Below are positions 23,676-42,286 of a stretch of 64,000 bases of DNA, in pieces. The notes beneath the pieces are model-generated. The model worked only from the letters and a program-made list of their open reading frames with translations, had not been told where the DNA came from and made no database searches. The translations under genes were made by a program, and so were the position numbers. Location of the stretch: NCBI RefSeq assembly GCF_044647545.1, contig NZ_CP172818.1. One strand, given 5' to 3'. The number at the start of each line of letters is the position of its first letter. Within the stretch, counting starts at the first letter, position 1. The DNA comes from Escherichia coli (GTDB lineage Bacteria; Pseudomonadota; Gammaproteobacteria; Enterobacterales; Enterobacteriaceae).

Positions 23676-24950
23676 TTAAATCTGCTTTTCATACAATCGG
23701 TAACGCTTGTACGGCTCCGCCCCAATGCGTTCCAGCATGTTATTCATGCCTGTATTGGTTTCGAGGATCCATGACATCTCCAGCGCATCGATCTTCCGGC
23801 GGGCAAACGGATCGCGTAAGGCTTCAATCAATAACAGCGCAATCACCGGGCCGATGCGGCTGAACTGATACTCGTCGCGCACGCCCATCAGCGGTACTCG
23901 CGCAGTTCGCACACCGCTGACTTTCAAACGCCACAGCAATTTTGCCCAGCCGAAGGGAAAGAGCGATCCGTTCAGATCGGCAATCGCCTCGTTGATGTTC
24001 GGCAAGCCGACAATAAACGCGCAGGGTGCAGAATCAATCTCAGCGATATAGATCATATCGTCCGGCACCAGATATTTAAGTTGATCGCCCATGGTCGCGA
24101 ATTCATGTTCGGTAAACGGCACAAATCCCCAGTTGTGCTGCCAGCCAGAGTTGAAAATCTCACGCAGGATCTGCATCTCTTCGGCAAACCGCTGACGATT
24201 GATGCAGCGAATGGTCACCTTTTTGCGCACCTGATCCATCAGTTTTTTTAGCGCCGGAGAGAAAGTGAGATCGGTTCGCTGCATCCACCACGCCAGTAAA
24301 TCAATGCCTTTGTGATAACCCAGTTGTTCAATATGCGCGGCATACCACGGTTTGCCGTGTGGCATCATCGCACAGGGTGGTGTGTCAAAACCTTCAATCA
24401 GTAATCCGCTTTCCTGATTGATATTCAGGCTGAAAGGACCGCTGATCTTACTTGCACCTTGTGACTTCAACCACGCTTCCGCTGCGCCAAACAACGCGGC
24501 AAAAACCTGCGGATCATCAATGGCGTCAATCATGCCGAAATGACCGGTATCTTTGCCGTAACGCTCGCGGTGCAAGGTATCTATTTGCGCGGTAATACGC
24601 CCAACTATCTGCCCCGCTTTTTTTGCCACCCACGCCTGCCAGATGATATGGTCCGTCCCCGGATTTTTCGCAGACAAATGCTCGTTGCGTTCAATGAATA
24701 AAGGGGGTATCCAGTTTGGATCGTCGGGATAAAGTGATGACGGAAAAGCGATAAATGCCTTAAGGTCATTTTTATTAAAGACGTCGCGAAACTGAAGACA
24801 ACCGGAAATTAACTTAAAACACTCCGAACGAATTTTATAATAAAAAACGATCGCGTCATACCGAAACAATACGATTCGTAAGTTTTTTTCCATATCCTTA
24901 TCGCGTCCCTCATTCAATCGTTTTAAGCCAGGATCCCTGGTTAACGGCAA
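23676..24950 (-). CDS. yghO: YghO (GNAT-like acyltransferase fold protein); 5' end uncertain
   Basis: 424-aa ORF convergent with glcC; its start abuts the anomalous block; I recall yghO being a pseudogene interrupted by IS5 in K-12, and no IS5 is present here. Confidence 0.7.
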   Translation of the reverse strand: MPLTRDPGLKRLNEGRDKDMEKNLRIVLFRYDAIVFYYKIRSECFKLISGCLQFRDVFNKNDLKAFIAFPSSLYPDDPNWIPPLFIERNEHLSAKNPGTDHIIWQAWVAKKAGQIVGRITAQIDTLHRERYGKDTGHFGMIDAIDDPQVFAALFGAAEAWLKSQGASKISGPFSLNINQESGLLIEGFDTPPCAMMPHGKPWYAAHIEQLGYHKGIDLLAWWMQRTDLTFSPALKKLMDQVRKKVTIRCINRQRFAEEMQILREIFNSGWQHNWGFVPFTEHEFATMGDQLKYLVPDDMIYIAEIDSAPCAFIVGLPNINEAIADLNGSLFPFGWAKLLWRLKVSGVRTARVPLMGVRDEYQFSRIGPVIALLLIEALRDPFARRKIDALEMSWILETNTGMNNMLERIGAEPYKRYRLYEKQI

Positions 24951-24989
24951 TACGAACGATTCCTCACGTCCATTCGAACGATATCCCTA

Positions 24990-25500
24990 CCTCCATACAC
25001 CTCCCACACCCTTTCCGGCTCATTATCACCCACCGAAGAGGCTAATCACGTCTATAACACGACGGCATTAAATTACCCGCGACCGCATCGCTCCTCTACC
25101 ATGAAGGGACGGTCGGCTTGACCCCCCCACGCACCATAGATTACGCACCAATCACTCCCCAAGCTTAAAGACATAAAAACCGGCACCTCCCCCGCCCATG
25201 AATTTCCACGCCCTGAATGAAAGAAATCCCTGAACTGGATCTTTCTCTGCGCGTCGCGGTATTTCAGAACCCATCTCCAGAACAGACTCTATCAATTTGC
25301 CATGCCCCACATTAACTATGATCATTCAACCCACGCATACAACGAATACATTTTAACCACCCTTTTAACATACCAACCGATTCCTCCACTCCACCGAAAA
25401 TTATACGCCTACCTCCATACACCCCCACACCGTTTCCCGTCATTACACCCACCGAACACCGAACACTCTATAACACACGCATTAAATACCCCCGACCCCT
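24990..25500. repeat. C/A-rich non-coding segment with two imperfect ~100-bp direct repeats (about 24990-25090 and 25408-25500)
   Basis: CTACCTCCATACACC..CCCACACC..TTTCC..TCATTA.CACCCACCGAA...TCTATAACAC..CATTAAAT..ACCC occurs twice at roughly 80 percent identity by eye; no ORF support. Confidence 0.4.
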
Positions 25501-26024
25501 CTCCCCTTTCACCAATAATTCGGCTTTCTCCTGACCCCCCCACCACATAATTACATAATTTACTCCAATTAAAATCATAAAAAATCCGGCATTTCTCCTC
25601 TATGAATCCACTAATAAAAAATCTAATGGATCTCCCCTTACAAACACCCAAACAACCATCAATAATTTATTAAACAAACTCAACACAAAAATTCACTTTT
25701 ATGAACTCTTAACGAATATCCACACCAAACAGTAAACCCCTCAAACACGCCTATCGATTTTCCGTCAAGTAAAACTTTTGAACAGATTGAAAATCCGCAG
25801 TGAAGCATATCCGGCGCGGCGGAATTTAGTGCAGATGCTTCATCACTCCTCTCAACCTTTAACGAAATCCAATCTCAAATCAGTAAACCTCCCCGGTCAA
25901 AACGCCTATCACTTCTCAACTGCGGCAAAGCTGGAAATTATTAAATCCAGCACTGTGAGCGGTGTATGCCTTGGCGGAACAGTTTCGGTAAGCCACCTCA
26001 TCTCCGGTCCGTCTATGACTTACT

Positions 26025-26426
26025 TTGGCGACCAGTTCGCAAGCAATTGCCGCGACGGGCTGGTTAGACACCGGCGACCTCGGTTATCTGCTGGACGGTT
26101 ATCTGTATGTCACCGGACGCATTAAAGATCTGATTATTATTCGTGGCCGTAATATCTGGCCGCAGGATATTGAATATATAGCGGAACAGGAACCGGAAAT
26201 TCATTCTGGCGATGCGATTGCTTTTGTTACCGCCCAGGAAAAAATCATTTTGCAGATCCAGTGTCGGATCAGCGACGAAGAACGTCGCGGGCAGGTTTCC
26301 CACCCCGCACGCGGCCAAAATGAAAATGGAGTTACCCCTGCTAGCGATTTTCGATCTCTCCACACCACACCCTTTTACGGCCCCTCCAACCCCACCCGTG
26401 CGCAAGCGGAAACACGTAAACATTAG
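26025..26426 (+). pseudogene. Fragment of a fatty acyl-AMP ligase / adenylate-forming enzyme (C-terminal subdomain only)
   Basis: ORF translation contains WLDTGDLGYLLDGYLYVTGRIKDLIIIRGRNIWPQDIEYIAEQEPEI, matching the conserved TGDLG...TGRxKDLIIxRGxNxYPQDIE motif of FAAL/acyl-CoA synthetases; the N-terminal ~450 aa of such enzymes is absent. Confidence 0.55.
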
Positions 26427-26558
26427 CGTAGGCTTCTAGTCTCAATGTTCATGAACCCCAATCATTAATCAAACTGACACTGTGACGGTGGCGAGCGGTA
26501 CTAGCTTTAAAGGTATTAATATTATAACCTGCTCGCCCGCGGCTTTCACGTTCGCGCA

Positions 26559-26840
26559 TTGACGCGTACTGCCCGCGCTCACGTCAATGATAATCTCCCC
26601 TCGGTGGGGGGTTGGCTGCAGGATACTCATTCACTTAGCGAGCTGGTTGCCGGAGCCAGCGTAGTGGTCCATTGCGCCGGGCAAGTGCGCGGGACAAGCA
26701 CCACGCTAATCGACCAGTCTAACCTTACCAAGCACCAAAGAGAGCTGCTAGCGCCAACGGTGTCCGTTTTTTTCTACCCTTTTCTCTTTCTATCTTCAGT
26801 TCCCCCGTACCCAAACGCGCTATACTGCTCTGAGCAATGA
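26559..26840 (+). pseudogene. Possible NAD(P)-binding (SDR/epimerase-like) fragment
   Basis: Short ORF with ...LVAGASVVVHCAGQVRG... resembling a Rossmann-fold motif; weak. Confidence 0.2.
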
Positions 26841-27764
26841 CAATCAGTAATGGCGGACCAAATGACGCTGGTGGTGGACCACCTTACAGTCGGCGTTTTT
26901 CCCGCGAAAAAAGTGTTTAAACCCCGCGTTGACGGGATGAAACCCCTCTTTCTGTGACTACTTGGCGCCCTACAGACACAGCTTTCTTTGCCGGATATCA
27001 CCCTTTTTTTTCAGCAGGTGACCAATTAAGCCGGAGAAGCGCCTCAATGATACAGACGCAAAAATACAAGCAAACCTATGAATTATGCGATGGCGTCGCC
27101 GGCGGCTATGACTGGCAACGCGTACAGCAACTTGCCGCCGACGCCCGTTGCGGTTCCCTGGATGGTGTTCATTGCCGGTACTCACCGGCCTTGCGGATAT
27201 CAGTACCGCGTTGAGTCGCCTGGCAGGTAAAGAACCTATGCTCTACCCGTCGAAAATTCGTGAATTAACCCACGCTACCTTTCGTCAACTTCTAACCCTG
27301 TTGTTGAAGATAGTTAGCCTGGTCCCCGGATTACCCAGCAAGACGTATTACTTAACTTGTTTTTTGGTCTGTCACGTTTATATGTTTAATAATGTAATAA
27401 TAATAAATTGTAAAATTTCCTTTTTACAGGATTTTGTCGATATAGTGTAGTTATTCCGAAAGAGGGGGATCTCGTAAGCGCTATAGCCATTGCGTCGATG
27501 AACGTGCTGGGACTCTTTCTAATGGTTGGAGCCCGTAACGATGTTTCCATACCGATTCATATTTTGATGGCTATTAATACCCCTGCGGATGTCATAACCA
27601 CTGTGCTATCATGGGTGGCGCTTCTATCATGGGGCTATAAGGTAGATGTGCGCGACTAGCTAGAGGGCGACTGCGCTTTCGAGCCACCGCATTTTAGCCA
27701 TTACGGGTTACTCACCTGTTTATGATGTTTATTTCCGCCACCGAAGGCCGGATCGGCAATAAAA

Positions 27765-28259
27765 ATGATATCTGGCCGGGACCGATTTTTCGGTTTTGTA
27801 ACCTTTAATCATGATGCCATAGGCGAAGGTCAGGCCGCGTTAGCGGCCCAAGGTACCGGCACCACCGGTTCTCGTATGGCAAACGGCAGTTATGCGCCGC
27901 ACCTGGCGTTAGAGAAAGAGATTGCCGAGTTTTTCAATCGCCCTACCGCTATCGTTTTTTCAACCGGTTATACCGCTAATTTAGGCGTCATCAGCGCACT
28001 TGCCGACCATAACGCCGTGGTGTTACTGGATGCCGACAGCCACGCCAGTATTTATGACGCCTGTTCTCTCGGTGGCGCGGAAATTATTCGTTTCCGCCAT
28101 AACGATGCTAAAGATCTGGAACGGCGGATGGTTCGCCCCGGTGAACGGGCGAAAGAGGCGATTATCATCGTTGAGGGTATCTACAGCATGCTCGGTGACG
28201 TTGCGCCGTTAGCGGAAATTGTTGATAAACATCTGCGTGTGGGTGATTTTTGTTTCTAG
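27765..28259 (+). pseudogene. Fragment of an alpha-oxoamine synthase (BioF/KBL/serine palmitoyltransferase family, PLP-dependent)
   Basis: ORF translation GSRMANGSYAPHLALEKEIAEFFNRPTAIVFSTGYTANLGVISALADHNAVVLLDADSHASIYDACSLGGAEIIRFRHNDAKDLERRM...IIIVEGIYSMLGDVAPLAEIV matches the conserved N-terminal/middle part of AOS enzymes; the region with the catalytic lysine is missing. Confidence 0.6.
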
Positions 28260-28423
28260 TAAGGCCCTTTGGTTTGCGTTGTAGGCGGAAAGGGGGGGCG
28301 AACTGCTTAAACTTGTCGGGGTTGAGGTTATTGTGATTTTTATCGTCGGCACCTTCAGTAAGTCTCTCCCCTAGTTTCGCTTTTTTTGTCTGGTTTCGAA
28401 AGAGGTAAAAGTGGTGCGATGCC

Positions 28424-28468
28424 ACCCCCCCCCATATTTTTTTCCCCCCTCTCTTTCCCCCCCCTCGA
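28424..28468. repeat. Homopolymer-rich low-complexity tract (poly-C, poly-T)
   Basis: GCCACCCCCCCCCATATTTTTTTTCCCCCCTCTCTTTCCCCCCCC; atypical for E. coli. Confidence 0.6.
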
Positions 28469-28918
28469 CGCGCCCGTGCCGTTAACAATGAGCGCCATAC
28501 CACCAGAGCCGGGGCAAAAGCTGATGGAGAAGGATAATCACCTGTATCACTGTGTCGATATACAAGGATTGGATTTTAGGTTACATATAAGTATTAGAGT
28601 GCTGGTAATAATCATAATCAAATAGGACGGGGTACGTATCCGGCTCTAGCGTGTGTTTCTTTCGTTGATCTTTTATGTGCATCTTATCCTCCCCCCTGCC
28701 GGGCATCACGCCGTCGCGCTGTACCCTAAAGCGTGCACACTGCTGAGAGTAGACAAATCGATGCCATCATTCAGGCATTTGCTACTCTGAAGCAGTAATG
28801 TGAGCCCGCCGTGGTGTTGCGCCACGGCGGGTTTAATGTGTTGTGTGATATCACTTACACCAGGCTCAACGCCACCAGCACAAACGCTATCGGTAAACCG
28901 AGCGCGGTAACAGGTGCG

Positions 28919-29997
28919 TCACGCAAATAGCAATCCCAGATTGACCATGATTTGATAGCTGATCCAGGTGAGTAAGCCAACGATGACACCTACAGCGAGA
29001 CGGCTACCCATCCCTCGGGAGCGCGGGGCGCTAAAAATAAACTGGACAGCCAGGAAAAATAACCCCAGGGGTAGGAATGGTTTCCCCAGTTTTTCCAACA
29101 TGGCAAGGCGTTATCCGTGGTGGGTTGCCCCGTTTCCTGGCAATTATGGGAGTTATGGATTAAGTGGAGGGACGGAAAATATATTCCCCCGTCGTTATAA
29201 CTTTTCAATTTTTATACGTGTAAAGCGCTTGCCCGGGGCAATTTTATGATATTTTCCGAGTGTTTTTGCGCCTCTCCCCTATTTTTTCTTTCACTATTAC
29301 ACCATGCAGGATCCACGTTTTGTCGTCTTCAATGGTGGCACTGCGTGCATAAATGTAGGATTCGAGCGAAAGATTACCACGAGATTGTAATATCTCTCCG
29401 CCCACAGGGGCTCCCCGTGCTTGTTGCGCGTTTACCGCGACAAATTTTCTACCCCGCCCCTCCCACAGCGCATTTTGGGGGTAGTGACCTCCTCCCCCCC
29501 ACGGCGCTGGCAGTCGATTTGATTTGCAGCGCCTGTTGCTGCAATGGCGACGCCACCCACTCATCTATCGCGCCTAACGAAACAGTCCACAATATCCCGG
29601 CAACCAGCGCCACCAGTGCAATACGGAAGATAGAAAACCCAGTGCTGCGAATGGCGGTAAGCTCACTGTTTTTCGATAACTGCCCCAGGCCAACAATCCC
29701 TCCCAATAATGCGATAAACGGCGAAAGTTCGACCAGTGTACGCGGTAAGGTCATCAGCACCACCAGCACCGCCTGAGTCCAGCGATAACCGCCCGGGCTG
29801 ACATCATCCAGTTCGTTAATCAGGTTGAAGGTGGTAAAAAGCGGCAGCAATAGCCCTGCGGCGGCGGCAAAACCGAGAAAGAGATGACGGATTAAATAGC
29901 GACTGAAAACGTTCTTCGGGAAAATTTCTGGAGCAAAGAGAAGTCGCGTGCGACCAGCATCAGCAGGCCCATTAGCATGAGTCCGGGTACTAACCAC
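28919..29997 (-). pseudogene. LptF/LptG-family (YjgP/YjgQ) permease homolog, fragmented (N-terminal and C-terminal pieces in different frames)
   Basis: ORF 29449..29997 has FSRYLIRHLFLGF...LPRTLVELSPFIALLGGIVGLGQLSKNSELTAIRSTGFS, an LptG-like N-terminus; ORF 28919..29101 resembles the C-terminal TM segments; frames are broken. Confidence 0.45.
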
Positions 29998-30981
29998 AAA
30001 CCAGGAAGGATGGGGACGCGTTTGCGCCCGTTAGCGCACTCGGCAGACGTCGCCGCCATAAAAAATGGCAATAAACAGCAACGTCAGTGGCAATAACGTT
30101 GTAAAATCGCCCTTGCCGCGGTTTTACCCGACTTAATGAAATGGCCAGCAGCGCCATCAACAATGCGGTCAGGCCACGGCTTTGTCGCCATTGCAGTTCG
30201 GCATGATCGGCAGGAAAGGCGGAGCGCGCCAGCTCCGTGACCGATTTTGCTTTGCGTTTGACGTTAGGGCTTTGATCCAGCGGATTCAGATGTAATTGCA
30301 GATTACGGTAGATCTGTTCGTTGTCGTCACGCCCCTGATGATCGAGAAGATAGGCGGTGCCATTCAACAAAATGATCGTTGGTTAGTTGAGTGGTCAACC
30401 ACACCAATCGAACGGACGCGGGAAAAACGTGTGCGATCGGTAGGAGAAGGATAAATCAGTGCGTGAGTCAGTCGAGCATTTATTTTATTAACCGACCGTC
30501 AAAGGAACATTCGTTCGTTAGTTTTCGTTTGTATTTTATTTCTTCCCCAACAAGTGGAGATCCACCAGCTACGGCTACGGCTGTTCCAGCCGATAAAAAT
30601 TCTGAGAATCCCACGGCCGACGATCCAACGACGGAAGGGGGATAAAAATACTTATTGGTATTATCAGAAAATGAAGGGCGGCTTTCAACCGTCGCCCAGG
30701 GCCCCCCCCGAGAGAGAGCTGGAGGTTATTAGCGGGTAGATATCCGTCCGACCGAGAGTCCAACCGACAGATACATACCGACAGGCAAGTACATCCCCAT
30801 CGCGAGCAGTACGCTGTATGTAACGATCGCTATCCCGAACATCAAGAGCTAAGGTCCCATTTGCCGCTTCGGTCAGATAACGCTGTGCGGAGTAGCTGGC
30901 GAAAATAAAGATCAGAAAACCGACGATAATCAGCACCAGACGGCGCGTACCACGCATGATGTAGTGTTCAACCAGCTTCAT
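29990..30981 (-). pseudogene. Second LptF/LptG-family permease homolog, fragmented (tandem with the downstream copy)
   Basis: ORF 30685..30981 starts MKLVEHYIMRGTRRLVLIIVGFLIFIF (LptF-like N-terminus); ORF 29990..30370 has AELQWRQSRGLTALLMALLAISLSRVKPRQGRF matching the conserved NPRQGR region; frames are broken. Confidence 0.45.
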
Positions 30982-31011
30982 CTCACTAACACCCTCAATC
31001 CTTTGAATTTT

Positions 31012-31573
31012 TTATTCATTGATCAGTTTCTGCGCCAGCGCAATGACATGATCTACCTCTTCCGGCGTCAGGCTGCCGTCCTTTGCCCACTGAATTTGCC
31101 CGTCTTTATTCAGCACCAGAATGGTTGAACTCTGCTCCGGCAACCGCCAGGCAACGCGTCCCAGTCCATTGCCGTCAATAACGAATTGCGCCCACGGATA
31201 GCGGCGTTTATTTTTTTCGATTTTGCCAACGACAAAATAGCCAGTACCAAAGATGGCATCATCGGTGTTCACAATGGTGGTGGGCTGAAAACGATCCTGC
31301 GGAAAGTTTGCCGCTTCAACCGCTTTAATTAACAGTGGCTTTTTTTTTTTCGCGGCCACTCACCCGGCGCTATATTCGGTATAACGCGGTTTTCCCCCGC
31401 GATGTGTGCTGTTCCCCACTTTGTGGTGTGTATTGTCGTCGCTCTATTCAGAAGGATCGCCCCGTTCCTGGGTATTAAACGGGGGTAACCGTTTTGCCAG
31501 TGACAAAATTGTGTGCCTGCACACCCTGGGCTAAGAGCATGATAATCAGCGCAATAATCAAACGAGATGACAT
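31012..31573 (-). pseudogene. YtfJ-family periplasmic protein homolog, frameshifted near a poly-T/poly-A tract
   Basis: C-terminal ORF 31012..31359 has ...TTIVNTDDAIFGTGYFV...YPWAQFVIDGNGL...LVLNKDGQIQWAKDGSLTPEEV matching E. coli YtfJ as I recall it; a signal-peptide-like N-terminus MSSRLIIALIIMLLAQGVQAHNF begins at 31573 in another frame; total span fits a ~185-aa protein. Confidence 0.55.
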
Positions 31574-32675
31574 CATTGCTCCGGTTATAGCGGAAAACGC
31601 GAAATCAGCAGCTCTAAGCGCTGGCGAATATCGCTATCCAGCGCCACCGGTGCATTATACGACCGGGCGGTTTTCCTAATAATCCCCACCATTGTGGCCG
31701 TGTTTTCCCCCATCAGGCCATTAATGGCGGCGAGGAAGCGGGAAATCTTTTATTGCTTTTGTTTATCAAGCGATCTTAAGGTGTCGTAATAAGAAACCTG
31801 CTGACTGATGATTTTTCGCACATCATGAAATTCCCTGCCGGTTAGTCGCGGTTTGGCAATTATCTTTTCATGTGAATTATTTTTTTTCGATAAAAATAAA
31901 AAAACTTCCGATTTTTGAATTGGTAAGGCTTAATGAAAATTCCACCAAGGACAAGACCGAAAAGTTTAATAAAACCCTAAACAATTTCCCTTAAACCAAC
32001 CCATTATTTTCTTTACCTTTAGGAAAACCTCCTGGAAACGGCCCCAAAAAAACGTCCTTTTTCCGGTAAAAAAATCCCCTCTTATTTGATAGTAAATACA
32101 GCCAATGCACAAAATTCAGGCGCTTTCAGCTCTCTTTTATGATTTTATTGTTCATCCGCAGTAAGATTCACCTCATTGCCTTTTTTCTGTTTTCATAGTA
32201 AACGCACCAACTCATTGAGATTAATGAGACTGAGTTAGAAGTGTAGCCAGTACTTGTAATTAATAATATGATTGGGTAAATATAATGTAATGCTAGACGC
32301 CACACTAAACTGACCAGCGCCGCCATCATATTATTCTACTCAACCGAAACAAAGATACCTCCCCTCGCGCGAAAAATGTAATATTTTCTTTATGATTACT
32401 ATTCCGCTCCGTTATCAAGATAAAGAAAGGAATGGCGCTGAAAAAATGCCGTCAAGGTTGGAGAGAACGAGAGCACCAGATATAGACAACCGCCATCGAA
32501 AAAAGCAAATCCCACCCCGACACGCAAACAACTACAAACAGATGAACAGCAATACGAAACTATACCGATGATGTCATGTTTCGCCACGATTGAGGCGATG
32601 GTTTCCCACGAAAAACCCTTTTTCCCCATCATACAATACTCCTGTGGGAAAAGCGCGCTGTTCCCCGCATCGAAA

Positions 32676-33791
32676 TCAAAGACTCCGGGAACCACATCGA
32701 AATACAATTGCGCCCAGCATCACCTGAATCAGGTCATACGCTTCGAGATACTTAACGCCAAACACCAGCGCAATAAGCGGCTTGCCGACGATCAACACCG
32801 CGAGCGCCACCAGAATACCGATTCCGCCCGCCAGTAAACCTGACTTCACGCCTAACAACCACGGTCTGGTGGTGCGCGGATCTAAACGCATCACCTCTGG
32901 GTAAAAACTTTTGCCCAGTAAACCCGCTGGCGTTCCGGCGGCGTCGAAGAATGTCATGGCGATTTTAAATAACCCGGCGGCAGCGGGTCCTAACACGATC
33001 CCCACCAGCACTGTGCTGCACGAGTTACGCGCCGACCAGATGGAGTGGGCAATGTTGGTTGACCAGACAAAACTCCACGCGCCTTTAATGTGTCGGGCAG
33101 ACTCAAACAGATTCAATTTGAAGGCGTTATGGATATTTCTGCGGCGTAATTCGCGCGCGGCAAACCACCAGTACATGGTGCCGCCAACCAGATTCGACAC
33201 GTACCAGGCAATAACAAAACCCGCAAAACCAAAGTCAAAATACCAGGCTACGACGCTCCCCGCTGCGCGCAGAAAAGGTTTCGTCGCTTGCTGTACAGCA
33301 ATTAGATCGAAGCGATCTACCGCACGCAGAATGCCGGTCGGCGTGGAGGAAGCCATTGAAGGAATGAGCGTGCAATACAGCGCTGCCAGCCAAAAGCTTT
33401 GGTCATCCAGACCTAATGAATGGGAAAGAAAAGGGAGTAAGGCAATGCCGCCGACAATCGCCACCGCGCCGCTGACGATATCCAGCGAGAAGGAAAATGA
33501 GACGACATTGCGAAATTGCTGCGGATTATTGTTGGTCAAGGCTGGCGTTCCGTACTGCACCACCAACTGCCATGTCTGAAACTTAATAAAATCGCTGATC
33601 GACTTGGCGTACGATTGCACAATCACCAGTACGCCAAACATGGCGGGCGTCATCCCTTTACCGGCACACGAGAGCGCCAACAGACCCAGTAAAGCGCTCA
33701 CGACATTACTGGAGCCTAACCAGGCGCTATTGCGAATAATGGTGCGAAACGCGCCATCTGCAAACCAATGTTTGATGTTAAAACCCGCCAA
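32676..33791 (-). CDS. yghQ: Polysaccharide-transporter/flippase-like inner membrane protein YghQ; 3' end possibly disturbed
   Basis: 371-aa polytopic membrane ORF; its C-terminus borders the anomalous block, and a further out-of-frame ORF follows at 32399..32707. Confidence 0.85.
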   Translation of the reverse strand: MAGFNIKHWFADGAFRTIIRNSAWLGSSNVVSALLGLLALSCAGKGMTPAMFGVLVIVQSYAKSISDFIKFQTWQLVVQYGTPALTNNNPQQFRNVVSFSFSLDIVSGAVAIVGGIALLPFLSHSLGLDDQSFWLAALYCTLIPSMASSTPTGILRAVDRFDLIAVQQATKPFLRAAGSVVAWYFDFGFAGFVIAWYVSNLVGGTMYWWFAARELRRRNIHNAFKLNLFESARHIKGAWSFVWSTNIAHSIWSARNSCSTVLVGIVLGPAAAGLFKIAMTFFDAAGTPAGLLGKSFYPEVMRLDPRTTRPWLLGVKSGLLAGGIGILVALAVLIVGKPLIALVFGVKYLEAYDLIQVMLGAIVFRCGSRSL

Positions 33792-33836
33792 TTCAGCCTG
33801 ACCTTATCGTTGATAGTAAAAAGTATCCCGCCAGCC

Positions 33837-34595
33837 TTAAGTTAAACTTCGGCGGTCAGAAACGATGGCAACCAGAGAAACCGCCTTCTGTGCCTGTTCC
33901 AGCACTTCGCTGTAAGGCGCTCTGGAATCAATCTCAAGAATTTTTGTGCCGTTATAGCCAATCTTCGACATGACGCCGATTTTGTCCTGCAATTCGGCAT
34001 AGTCATGGTCAGGCTTGCGGGAAATGGCAGTATCAATATCAATCCCCAAACGAATGATTAATTCAGGACGGTATTGCGCCATTTGTTGGTATAAACGCCG
34101 TTCGCGCTGCGCCAGAAACATGCTGATTTTCCCGGTCGCACGTTCGACGCCGATCCCCGGTCCGTCATAATAAAAGCCCGAAATTTCAGCCTGCGGGAAG
34201 CGATCGCTGACCACCAGAACGCCACTTTGCGCCAGTCGCTGAACCTTGCGTAGATTCGCCATTCTTCGCAGCGAGAAGCAGTACATAATCACCGCCGCCC
34301 ATAGCGCTGGAGATTTGGTTTTCATGCTTTGGGTTTTCGATGATTTGGCCGCCAGTCGCCGTTCGAGCCAGACGCCAACCAACGGCAATCGTTTGATTTT
34401 GTCGCCGTCTTCGCCCGAGAGCAGCCCCAGATAGCGGCGCTCGGTTTGCCAGTGTTGTTGCAGCGATTTCACCAGATCGGTGGTCAGTGTGGATTTACCG
34501 GTACCATCACACCCGACCACCGCAATCAGCCCCGGAATGTAGTTGGGCTGCGGCGCGGTTGTACTATTAACAGTTTGTGTTTGTAGTGCGTCCAT
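33837..34595 (-). CDS. yghR: P-loop NTPase family protein YghR, 252 aa
   Basis: Walker A motif GCDGTGKST near the N-terminus; paralogous to yghS and yghT. Confidence 0.9.
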   Translation of the reverse strand: MDALQTQTVNSTTAPQPNYIPGLIAVVGCDGTGKSTLTTDLVKSLQQHWQTERRYLGLLSGEDGDKIKRLPLVGVWLERRLAAKSSKTQSMKTKSPALWAAVIMYCFSLRRMANLRKVQRLAQSGVLVVSDRFPQAEISGFYYDGPGIGVERATGKISMFLAQRERRLYQQMAQYRPELIIRLGIDIDTAISRKPDHDYAELQDKIGVMSKIGYNGTKILEIDSRAPYSEVLEQAQKAVSLVAIVSDRRSLT

Positions 34596-34626
34596 TCGTT
34601 AAATCATCCCCTATCCATTTTGGTGA

Positions 34627-35340
34627 TCAGGAAAGCGCAGCGTGAATTGCGCGTAGTGACGCTTGCAGAATTTCATCGGCTGGTTGCCGACCATCCAGTT
34701 CAAGGATCTTTGCGCCATTGAATGTCAGTTGCGGCGTAACGGCGATTTTTTCCTGTAACGCTGCCAGTTGGTGGTCAGGTTTACGCGCAAACGCGGTTTG
34801 TTCATCAATGCCAAGACGAATCAACAATACGGGCAAATAAGACGCCATCCATTGGTACAGCTTCAGCTCGCGCTGCCTTAACATTTTTATCCAACCGTTA
34901 CCGCCCGTGGTTTTTGCCAATTGCGGGCCATCAAAGCGAAAACCCGGCACTTCAACCTGCGGGTAGCGGTCGGTGATGAGCAGGTAGCCTTGCTGGCTTT
35001 TACACAACATTTTGCGAAACTTGTACGCCCGCCAGCAGGAAAGCAGATAGATAACCAGCGCAGTCATATTGCCAGGCGGTGTGGAGGGCTTTTCGTGCAC
35101 ATGTGCCGCTTTACTTCGCAGATAACGCCCAAAAGGTGCGCCAATAACAGGGAGCTGTGAAATCCATTCGCCAATTCGCCCGGACGATTGCCCGAGATAA
35201 ATGTGTTCTGTTGGCATTGTTGCTGCCAGTTCATTTACCAGGCTTGCCGTGAGGGTCGATTTACCTGAACCATCACATCCTACAATGGCAATAACACGCA
35301 CTGGCGTGGAATTAATTATTGACATATTACGTTGATTCAC
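34627..35340 (-). CDS. yghS: P-loop NTPase family protein YghS, 237 aa
   Basis: Walker A motif GCDGSGKST; paralog of YghR. Confidence 0.9.
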   Translation of the reverse strand: MNQRNMSIINSTPVRVIAIVGCDGSGKSTLTASLVNELAATMPTEHIYLGQSSGRIGEWISQLPVIGAPFGRYLRSKAAHVHEKPSTPPGNMTALVIYLLSCWRAYKFRKMLCKSQQGYLLITDRYPQVEVPGFRFDGPQLAKTTGGNGWIKMLRQRELKLYQWMASYLPVLLIRLGIDEQTAFARKPDHQLAALQEKIAVTPQLTFNGAKILELDGRQPADEILQASLRAIHAALS

Positions 35341-35514
35341 GAAAAACCCGGCAGCAAATAATGTATTGAATATTACGTGGTCCGTGCTCAGAATATCCGT
35401 TCAACCTTATTGTGACAATGGTTAATTGTGACATTGACCTGAATTACGCTTTCATCAAAAACATATTAACCAAATAAATATTTTGGATGGATATTTAAAT
35501 TTAAGGATATATTC

Positions 35515-36207
35515 ATGCAGTCAATAATACCTCCATTAATTGCCGTTATTGGTAGCGATGGTTCAGGCAAGTCAACGGTGTGTGAACATCTTATTACCGT
35601 TGTCGAAAAATATGGTGCTGCCGAAAGAGTTCATTTAGGAAAACAGGCCGGAAATGTCGGTCGTGCAGTGACAAAATTACCGTTGATGGGAAAATCCTTA
35701 CATAAAACAATTGAACGAAATCAGGTGAAAACAGCAAAAAAATTGCCTGGCCCTGTTCCGGCGCTGGTAATTACAGCGTTTGTCGCCCGTCGCTTACTGC
35801 GCTTTCGTCATATGCTTGCCTGTCGTCGTCGCGGGTTAATTGTTCTAACCGACCGTTATCCTCAGGACCAAATTCCTGGTGCTTACGATGGTACGGTGTT
35901 CCCACCTAACGTTGAAGGTGGTCGTTTTGTCTCATGGCTGGCAAGCCAGGAACGTAAAGCGTTTCACTGGATGGCGAGCCATAAGCCCGATCTGGTCATC
36001 AAACTCAATGTCGATCTGGACGTGGCCTGCGCGCGTAAGCCTGACCACAAAAGAGAATCGCTGGAAAGGAAGATAGCCATAACGCCACAGTTAACCTTTG
36101 GTGGTGCACAACTGGTTGATATCGATGCTAATCAGCCACTGGAAAAGGTGCTGGTTGATGCAGAAAAAGCGATTACGGATTTTATGACCGCGCGTGGTTA
36201 TCACTAG
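35515..36207 (+). CDS. yghT: P-loop NTPase family protein YghT, 230 aa
   Basis: Walker A motif GSDGSGKST; third paralog, divergently oriented. Confidence 0.9.
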
Positions 36208-41520: not shown

Positions 41521-42037
41521 CCTGCATGCCTTCCAGATATGCATTTCCTGCGCAAAAATACCCCCCTCCTTCTTCTCTCTTTCCGCCCTCTGTTTCCCCT
41601 CCTTTTCTCGGGTATCAACAAAACGGTCATTCTTTTCTCCCTCCCGCGCCTAAAAAAGCCCTCACCACCAGTTTGTGTCGCCTTTTTCCTGTTTTCCGCC
41701 GTGTGGTGGCCGGGAATGTTAAAGCCGGCCGGCCGCGGGGGAGAGACAGAGAAAATGCGAGAAAACAAAAAAAAACACGCAAAGTCTCTCTAGAAGAAAA
41801 TAGCCGCCCCCGTTCCTGCAATCCAGGAGCAGAAGAGCGAAAAAAAAAAAAAGAATAAAGGGGGGAGGGGGTGGTATAAAAAAGTTAAAATTGTTGTGGT
41901 GAAAAAAGGAGGCCAGACGGGCCGGTGAAAAAATTCTGTGGGGAAGACTATTTTAAATAAAGGTTTTGTAAAAAACACCACCTGATGTGATATGATATTC
42001 ACTACAAGTGTGGGGTGGAGTTTACGCGCCCTAATCA

Positions 42038-42286
42038 TCACGCGCTGGTAATGTCGTAATCCATTTGGCGCAGCGCGTCTAATGTGGCTTTGGCTTCGTC
42101 TTCATCGATGATGCTCATGGCAAATCCGACGTGCACCAGTACCCACTGGCCCAGCAGATCGGCAGGGTTACCTTCGCAAATCAGGGCGATATTCACGTCG
42201 CGCTTGATACCACATACTTCAACCTGCGCAAGCTGGTGAATATCTTCACCGACAGCCAGCACCTGGCCTGGAACGCCAATACACAT
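42038..42286 (-). CDS. hybG: Hydrogenase maturation chaperone HybG (HypC family), 82 aa
   Basis: ORF track 82 aa beginning MCIGVPGQV (HypC MCxxxP motif). Confidence 0.93.

Follow-up and report, generated by a model that had tools for sequence, protein, structure and literature searches.

Sphingolipid synthesis has been described for Escherichia coli by Padilla-Gomez et al. (PMC9386255), who found that the acyl carrier protein AcpR, the ligase AasR and Spt of strain BL21(DE3) make 3-oxo-sphinganine; in the same paper, the epimerase-like gene cerR and yghO (aca) were assigned to dihydroceramide formation. In Caulobacter, the anionic lipid ceramide diphosphoglycerate originates from a cluster of similar layout, which includes LptF2G2 and a flippase (PMC11324152). 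Genetic evidence indicates that the LptF2G2C2 proteins of Caulobacter transport sphingolipid, and the preprint reporting this draws the sphingolipid operons of E. coli UTI89 beside the Caulobacter and Sphingomonas loci encoding LptF2G2 (10.64898/2026.04.12.717747). A second system of interest is PPK3, in which two Sulfolobus "thymidylate kinases" encoded beside a CHAD protein constitute a heteromeric polyphosphate kinase (Hofmann et al., JBC 2026, PMC12995831). It is built from a catalytic and a regulatory subunit and carries a basic cleft in place of the dTMP site; its paralogs lack dTMP kinase activity and rPPK3 has lost the arginine of the DRX motif (PMC12995831). Here, we compare with both systems four neighbouring genes, yghQ, yghR, yghS and yghT, which occupy positions 32676-36207 of a 64,000-nucleotide stretch of E. 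coli DNA (contig NZ_CP172818.1 of assembly GCF_044647545.1; this whole stretch is called the window).

We found that yghQRST makes up the distal half of the sphingolipid locus already published for E. coli. In undamaged form the locus reads yghO on the minus strand, then aasR, cerR, acpR and spt on the plus strand, then lptG2, lptF2, a ytfJ-like gene, a gene for a 274-amino acid protein, yghQ, yghR and yghS on the minus strand and finally yghT on the plus strand. In the two E. coli genomes in which we followed its annotation, the genes from aasR to spt are named fatty acyl-AMP ligase, NAD-dependent epimerase/dehydratase, acyl carrier protein and serine palmitoyltransferase, and those next to them lptG-like, lptF-like and YtfJ-family, with the 274-amino acid product labelled hypothetical. 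The intact YtfJ-family protein matches TIGR01626 (E 6e-63), and full-length YghQ is annotated as an "LPS biosynthesis protein" of 449 amino acids. In intact E. coli and a large number of further Proteobacteria, yghQRST adjoins the ceramide-synthesis and LptF2G2 genes in an unbroken, co-directional series. Serratia and Carnimonas carry the same gene set in other chromosomal surroundings. With a probability of roughly 55%, we read yghQRST as the head-group and export end of this proteobacterial locus, where the kinases YghR, YghS and YghT would phosphorylate the lipid, YghQ would flip it and LptF2G2 would export it. The broader statement that the three kinases act somewhere in sphingolipid head-group formation or export is likely, while a specific oligophosphate chemistry on ceramide is a considerably more speculative proposition. 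The genes in question are arranged as follows:

32676-33791, minus strand: yghQ, 371 amino acids, truncated; lipid flippase of the MOP superfamily (Wzx/MurJ-like), as judged from MOP models
33837-34595, minus strand: yghR, 252 amino acids, intact; P-loop kinase with dTMP-kinase-like fold, orthogroup R
34627-35340, minus strand: yghS, 237 amino acids, intact; P-loop kinase with dTMP-kinase-like fold, orthogroup S
35341-35514, no strand: divergent intergenic region between yghS and yghT, a 174-bp spacer
35515-36207, plus strand: yghT, 230 amino acids, intact; P-loop kinase with dTMP-kinase-like fold, orthogroup T

A first-pass annotation of the window, made from the letters alone, had proposed these four reading frames and had described YghR, YghS and YghT as a tandem family of paralogs. 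Pairwise alignment bore out the paralogy. All three pairs are strongly similar over their full length, with 44% identity for YghR and YghS (E 3e-63), 37% for YghS and YghT (E 6e-54) and 34% for YghR and YghT (E 5e-49), and the Walker A strings quoted for the trio (GCDGTGKST, GCDGSGKST and GSDGSGKST) were confirmed. The tandem arrangement holds for yghS and yghR, but yghT is transcribed divergently. The gaps between yghS and yghR (31 bp) and between yghR and yghQ (45 bp) are so short that a single transcription unit fits. The spacer between yghS and yghT is probably a shared control region for both genes, as the divergent arrangement is kept in most of the 80 loci compared below. In K-12 a genomic-SELEX peak of FlhDC lies between yghS and yghT (PMC9962212). 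Our promoter search in the spacer gave a single weak promoter-like match, which was not above chance.

When we compared the trio with known families, we found the fold of thymidylate (dTMP) kinases (TMPK), with P-loop and DRX motif both in place. RefSeq annotation (PGAP) names yghS and yghT "dTMP kinase" (e.g., L001, 17989-19568), and the label of yghR varies between "hypothetical", "ATP-binding protein" and "nucleoside/nucleotide kinase family protein". Were these names correct, the trio would be redundant thymidylate or nucleoside kinases, and both the fold and the best family match, which is TIGR00041 (dTMP kinase), agree with that. However, YghR, YghS and YghT score 31.2, 25.1 and 24.9 bits against a curated cut-off of 83.25 bits, and the Pfam model Thymidylate_kin (PF02223) matches with an i-Evalue of 0.025 over residues 21-63 alone, which is the P-loop region. 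Moreover, the P-loop is separated from the DR(Y/F)PQ motif by roughly 70 residues, which make up three helices with many conserved basic positions, and this insert sits where the acceptor dTMP binds in TMPK. An RKPDH motif, strictly conserved in YghR, YghS and YghT, is an addition relative to TMPK. The neighbouring genes have nothing to do with nucleotide metabolism; the linkage to a lipid pathway extends over five bacterial classes, and the comparable PPK3 paralogs are devoid of dTMP kinase activity (PMC12995831). Thus, the name "dTMP kinase" given to yghS and yghT is an over-annotation, and we reject that function as highly improbable. Other family searches were of little help: the Pfam scan of YghS gave no significant family (P-loop matches alone, E >= 0.005), the sequence-profile search of the PDB with YghR, YghS and YghT gave TMPK matches at the level of the P-loop and nothing more, and the PADLOC models of anti-phage defence matched the trio at the P-loop level alone (E >= 2e-4 over about 28 residues). 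A role in anti-phage defence was therefore rejected.

The residues required for phosphoryl transfer are retained by all three proteins. At least 90% conservation within each orthogroup was seen for K27, R104, D124-R125, D137, E158, R186-K-P-D-H190 and K198, and every orthogroup also keeps G21, D23, G24, G26 and T29. R125, the arginine of the DRX motif, is conserved to 100% in orthogroups R, S and T. The proteins are strongly basic, with net charges of +11 to +14 and 15-18 conserved basic positions each. The whole family is large, with 2202 representative clusters at E <= 1e-3, and lacks a dedicated Pfam model.

For the conservation of the module we used one genome per species, which gave 80 loci; 13 proteins of the E. 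coli cluster were mapped onto them and neighbours were counted within 10 kb. At least one cluster gene lies near the trio in 72 of the 80 loci. The YghQ-like flippase was found in 61, the gene of the 274-amino acid protein in 55, spt in 54 and aasR in 47 loci, and among Enterobacterales-like loci spt is nearly constant (39 of 40). The co-occurrence of yghQRST with FAAL (aasR) and "AOS" (spt) genes, which the first-pass annotation had put forward as a check, is thus observed. The arrangement yghT(-)|yghS(+) yghR(+) recurs in Gamma-, Beta-, Alpha- and Deltaproteobacteria; it was seen in Enterobacterales, Halomonadaceae (Carnimonas), Xanthomonadales (Rhodanobacter, Luteibacter, Dyella), Betaproteobacteria (Nitrotoga, Gallionellaceae, Rhodocyclaceae, Sulfuritalea), Alphaproteobacteria (Sphingobium, Novosphingobium, Acetobacter) and Myxococcales-type and other deltaproteobacterial genomes. 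On clustering, R, S and T separated cleanly (217 of 218 sequences recovered), with a median identity of 55-58% within and 35-43% between the orthogroups. These data indicate that the triplication is older than the divergence of these classes. Since three adjacent paralogs have been kept for so long with intact catalytic sets, redundancy is hard to assume, and three non-redundant activities or an obligate hetero-oligomer are the more plausible scenarios.

Two further genes recur in the module outside Escherichia (L003, 11596-12730; L004, 2194-2553). A small membrane kinase of the DgkA type is encoded within the cluster in about 22 loci and its gene adjoins yghO in these other genera. An LpxO-like Asp/Arg hydroxylase gene lies directly 3' of yghR in about 20 loci, and this protein is about 70% identical between Gamma- and Betaproteobacteria.

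In intact loci the 274-amino acid protein is encoded in one operon with the kinases, and in distant taxa its gene often lies immediately upstream of yghS. Fold comparison revealed two four-helix bundles arranged with pseudo-two-fold symmetry, with conserved basic residues, which is the CHAD fold; the E. coli triphosphatase YgiF is among the fold matches, and unrelated matches align over about 100 residues. The protein shares this two-bundle fold with the CHAD domain proteins (PF05235; 6qv5, 3e0s, PptA 6rn5, YgiF 5a61), but it is missed by the Pfam model and encoded in a lipid locus rather than in a polyphosphate operon. In the alignment, motifs of invariant basic and histidine residues occur in duplicate (R88..K92-H93..R95 with G119..Q122-D123, and H193..R196-K197 with G234..H237-D238), as expected for a pseudo-symmetric pair of CHAD bundles. 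CHAD domains are specific polyphosphate-binding modules (10.1101/567040).

Kinases of the dTMP kinase fold encoded together with a CHAD-fold protein are the defining architecture of PPK3 (Saci_2019/Saci_2020 with the CHAD protein Saci_2021), and the Ygh module resembles that system in its paralogs, in its basic surfaces and, as far as the fold shows, in the CHAD component. Like PPK3 it has adjacent paralogs distinct from the housekeeping tmk, but there are three instead of two. The joint top structural neighbour of YghS is 2plr (S. tokodaii ST1543), which, going by the matching locus number, we take to be the cPPK3 homolog STK_15430, cited in the PPK3 paper as PDB 5h70. It might therefore be argued that YghR, YghS, YghT and the CHAD-fold protein form a heteromeric kinase of the PPK3 type, which makes or consumes free polyphosphate, for instance to supply the pathway with phosphate or energy, and does not act on the lipid itself; the strongly basic conserved surfaces would suit such a function. 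However, the sequence-profile search of the PDB placed 2plr/5h70 outside the best 60 matches and showed no affinity to PPK3 above that to ordinary TMPKs. None of the three paralogs has lost the DRX arginine as rPPK3 has, so that no regulatory pseudo-subunit is evident, and ppx, sixA and pst are absent from the neighbourhood. In addition, E. coli already has PPK1, and free polyphosphate would leave the linkage to ceramide genes, flippase and LptF2G2 unexplained. Unlike PPK3, the Ygh genes are embedded in a cluster for lipid synthesis and export. Taken together, the Ygh module is not demonstrably a member of the PPK3 family, and a role in free polyphosphate metabolism is unlikely.

The closest sphingolipid counterpart is the Caulobacter crescentus locus (CC_1152-CC_1168). 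It shares spt, acpR, aasR, cerR, bCerS, lptF2G2 and a putative flippase (CC_1166) with the E. coli locus, and it encodes enzymes that make the head group anionic via phosphate, as we propose for E. coli. There, however, the head group is built by a kinase of the DAGK/LCB5 fold (CpgB, with a GGDG motif) together with nucleotidyltransferases and a CDP-alcohol transferase; no homology links any of these enzymes to YghR, YghS, YghT or the CHAD-fold protein. Homology of the trio to the ceramide kinase CpgB was rejected because of the different folds (DAGK/LCB5 with GGDG versus Walker A TMPK fold), and among the other head-group enzymes (CC_1152, 1153, 1158, 1159 and 1161) there is no P-loop kinase. 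In turn, the enterobacterial-type cluster is free of any Cpg enzyme (CpgA-D), and genes for a glycosyltransferase, a CDP-alcohol transferase, a nucleotidyltransferase or CpgB are missing from the E. coli cluster. As there is no other candidate for a head-group enzyme in the intact E. coli cluster, kinases acting on the lipid itself are the most economical reading.

One could imagine instead that the trio phosphorylates a soluble head-group precursor (a sugar, glycerate or an amino alcohol), which an enzyme encoded elsewhere transfers to ceramide. Most members of this fold class (nucleoside monophosphate, deoxynucleoside, gluconate and shikimate kinases) accept small soluble molecules, and a GT4 glycosyltransferase gene lies near the module in Sphingobium. 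Among distant family members there are fusions with an NTP_transf_5-like domain, with a GT4 glycosyltransferase, and with a MOP flippase combined with a nucleotidyltransferase-like domain; the nucleotidyltransferase-like fusions (PF14907) suggest a sequence of phosphorylation and nucleotidylation. However, the module is not accompanied by any conserved transferase, it is hard to see why a single precursor should need three non-redundant kinases, and the CHAD-fold partner points to a ligand with a phosphate chain instead. We consider this scenario improbable.

The remaining member of the group, YghQ, is predicted to be a flippase of the MOP superfamily (Wzx/MurJ/MATE), since family models match over its membrane domain. 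The flippase model NF007773 matched the window copy with E 1e-4 and the intact protein with E 1.9e-8 (residues 18-435), and the Serratia ortholog carries the Pfam domains Polysacc_synt (PF01943) and Polysacc_synt_3 (PF13440). The first-pass annotation had recognized a Wzx/MATE-like membrane protein here, to which one correction has to be added: the window copy is truncated after residue 363. Up to this position 362 of 363 residues are identical to the intact 449-amino acid protein; eight unrelated codons and a stop follow, so that the last 86 codons are lost and the full transmembrane set is not kept. K-12 yghQ is likewise truncated, for another reason than the window copy. Deletion of this already truncated K-12 gene doubled the minimal inhibitory concentration of chlorhexidine.

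The constant adjacency of the trio to the flippase gene in 61 of the 80 loci raises the question of whether YghR, YghS and YghT are NTPases serving as accessory or regulatory subunits of YghQ or LptF2G2 rather than biosynthetic kinases. A distant homolog (P0246), in which a MOP flippase, a nucleotidyltransferase-like domain and a YghS-like domain are joined in one protein, is in line with this idea. On the other hand, transport by MOP flippases is coupled to ions and LptFG works with the ABC ATPase LptB, the trio has a kinase fold and not that of ABC or AAA+ proteins, and there is strict conservation of the DR motif and the lid-like basic motif, which typify phosphotransfer to an acceptor. An accessory function in transport is thus quite improbable.

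We therefore return to a trio of lipid kinases and suggest the following mechanism. The three kinases, which perhaps form a hetero-oligomer, would phosphorylate ceramide or ceramide-1-phosphate on the cytoplasmic side of the inner membrane. The latter might be supplied by a DgkA-type kinase, which many genera encode within the cluster and E. coli encodes elsewhere, or by one of the paralogs. E. coli DgkA phosphorylates ceramide, as is known from the classical diacylglycerol kinase assay. The reaction series would lead from ceramide via ceramide-1-phosphate to a di- or oligophosphate; TMPK-type enzymes transfer phosphate onto phosphate and deoxynucleoside kinase-type enzymes transfer it onto a hydroxyl group. 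The product would carry a phosphate-rich anionic head group, possibly with a short phosphoanhydride chain held by the CHAD-fold protein. YghQ would then flip the lipid, and LptB2F2G2 would extract it for the outer membrane. Pyrophosphate-linked lipids are normal cargo of MOP flippases, and the fusions of YghS-like domains with a MOP flippase and with a GT4 glycosyltransferase support the lipid kinase reading. A functional analogy can be drawn to LpxK, the lipid A 4'-kinase, which is also a P-loop kinase and phosphorylates the precursor of a membrane lipid on the cytoplasmic side, ahead of flipping and Lpt export. Unlike YghR, YghS and YghT, LpxK belongs to another P-loop subfamily with another architecture, has no detectable similarity to them and is a single enzyme instead of a trio. 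In its boldest form our proposal regards the trio and the CHAD-fold protein as a lipid-directed relative of the PPK3 machinery, which would attach a di-, tri- or oligophosphate chain to ceramide itself and so make a ceramide (oligo)phosphate, a widespread and so far undescribed class of anionic outer-membrane lipids, flipped by the MOP protein and exported by LptF2G2; this is a tentative and rather doubtful extension.

The first-pass annotation had suggested modification and export of a lipid-linked or small-molecule product. Our data support the lipid-linked version, and the product can be specified as a sphingolipid (ceramide), because the neighbouring genes are the experimentally characterized aasR, acpR and spt and the assigned cerR and yghO (PMC9386255).

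Several observations weigh against this interpretation. The substrate of YghR, YghS and YghT is deduced from genomic context, and the literature we searched contained neither a biochemical or lipidomic datum for these proteins nor an E. coli sphingolipid structure. In 26 of the 80 loci spt is missing within 10 kb, although many of the contigs concerned are short and the spt gene of sphingomonads lies elsewhere. Distant family members fused to the NTP_transf_5-like domain occur in unrelated contexts: P0168 has a protein kinase, DUF3373 and a phosphoesterase as neighbours, which is uninformative, and the contigs of P0246 and P0170 are too short to give context. The CHAD assignment comes from the fold: the 274-amino acid protein had no Pfam, NCBIfam or PDB sequence-profile match, and the Pfam CHAD model reached E 0.089 in one of 17 sequences. 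Finally, the departures from PPK3 named above (the retained DRX arginine in all three proteins with no evident regulatory subunit, and the absence of ppx and sixA) also count against a PPK3-like lipid machinery.

The upstream part of the locus is heavily damaged in the window. Between glcC and the pitB, gss and yghU genes, which follow yghT, the chromosomal order of E. coli (glcC, yghO, ..., yghQ, yghR, yghS, yghT, pitB, gss, yghU) is kept, but the genes from yghO up to yghQ are present in the following state:

23676-24818, minus strand: yghO ("aca"), N-acyltransferase of the bacterial ceramide synthase type, intact except for the first ~13 codons, which lie inside the degenerate stretch
24920-28798, plus strand: remnants of the ceramide-backbone genes aasR (FAAL), cerR, acpR and spt, degenerate
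28833-30981, minus strand: remnants of lptG2 and lptF2, sphingolipid-type LptFG paralogs, degenerate
31012-31573, minus strand: remnant of the YtfJ-family gene, of which a 115-amino acid reading frame is all that remains
31585-32396, minus strand: remnant of the gene for the 274-amino acid CHAD-fold protein, degenerate; intact in other E. coli (L001, 14980-15804)

The biosynthetic remnants which the first-pass annotation had noticed upstream are indeed there, but its FAAL and AOS genes are more precisely aasR and spt of the sphingolipid locus. The damage extends over a 7.9-kb stretch (24779-32665) that is collinear with the intact cluster, with a patchy identity of 60-99% per 250 bp and 349 gap columns. 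Every reading frame in it is broken, at 60-90% identity to the intact genes, and no long one is left, which affects aasR, cerR, acpR, spt, lptG2, lptF2, the ytfJ-like gene, the 274-amino acid gene and the 3' end of yghQ. Its boundaries are sharp (the yghO 5' end and yghQ codon 363), and its ratio of transitions to transversions is 0.55, compared with 2.4-3.1 in the flanks. This version of the stretch was found in no complete E. coli genome (best match 84.8%). In contrast, the window outside this stretch matches strain FDAARGOS_497 at 96-100% identity, and of 5426 complete E. coli genomes 4504 carry yghQRST (95-99% identity). The degenerate stretch is not what natural pseudogene decay within a species looks like, and it may be an artefact of sequencing or assembly or a non-natural sequence. 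A functional ceramide pathway is absent from the window: the genes for the ceramide backbone, lptF2G2 and the gene of the CHAD-fold protein are destroyed, as is yghQ at its 3' end, so that yghR, yghS and yghT are intact orphans of a dead pathway here.

Within the stretch, the segment 24800-25750 stands where the intergenic region between yghO and aasR and the 5' part of aasR would be. It has a very low G content (G 10.5%, C 34%, A 32%; GC skew -0.4 to -0.5). By gapped comparison it contains a decayed direct repeat of about 135 bp (~24950-25084 versus 25370-25497, 79% identity); an ungapped repeat finder applied to 24700-26000 reported no repeat. Elsewhere in the window, short patches at 41551-42150, 11190-11589 and 60951-61150 show 66-82% identity to FDAARGOS_497 amid 98-100%. 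At 41.5-42.2 kb, between yghU and hybG, the reference holds an IS3-family element, and the open reading frames in the patch 41551-42150 are of low complexity. At a junction at position 6790, the window lacks about 8 kb that FDAARGOS_497 has in its type II secretion operon, from roughly gspL to gspD; positions 5404-6791 of the window correspond to 590002-591389 of the reference, and the alignment resumes at reference position 599390.

Inactivation of the locus is not confined to the window. In FDAARGOS_497, the E. coli genome closest to it, spt is interrupted by an IS1 element (L002, 6247-8196). The K-12 locus has suffered what we take to be an IS5-associated deletion. These two events suggest that the locus was inactivated independently in different lineages.

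The first-pass annotation had called the proteins functionally uncharacterized, and our literature search agrees: it found no function for YghR, YghS or YghT and no paper that names yghQ, yghR, yghS or yghT in connection with sphingolipids or assigns them a function. Published phenotypes are scarce; knockouts of yghQ, R, S and T left silkworm killing unchanged, and SlyA overexpression raised yghS 3.1-fold. The sphingolipid locus itself and the uncharacterized status of the four genes were known before. New relative to the literature searched are four points: yghQRST is explicitly assigned to the sphingolipid pathway, the three orthogroups are old and have kept their catalytic residues, the partner protein has a CHAD fold, and the architecture is PPK3-like.

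If this placement is correct, four "y-genes" become candidates for the head-group chemistry of E. coli sphingolipids. Most clinical and commensal E. coli have the locus, but K-12 lacks it, and this may be why it was overlooked. About three quarters of complete E. coli genomes carry it, so that the lipid, if our reading is true, would be widespread there and in many Proteobacteria. In Caulobacter, anionic sphingolipids can take over functions of lipid A and have an influence on virulence and on the sensitivity to polymyxin. Beyond this, the parallel to CHAD and PPK3 suggests an unusual chemistry, namely lipid head groups that contain phosphoanhydrides.

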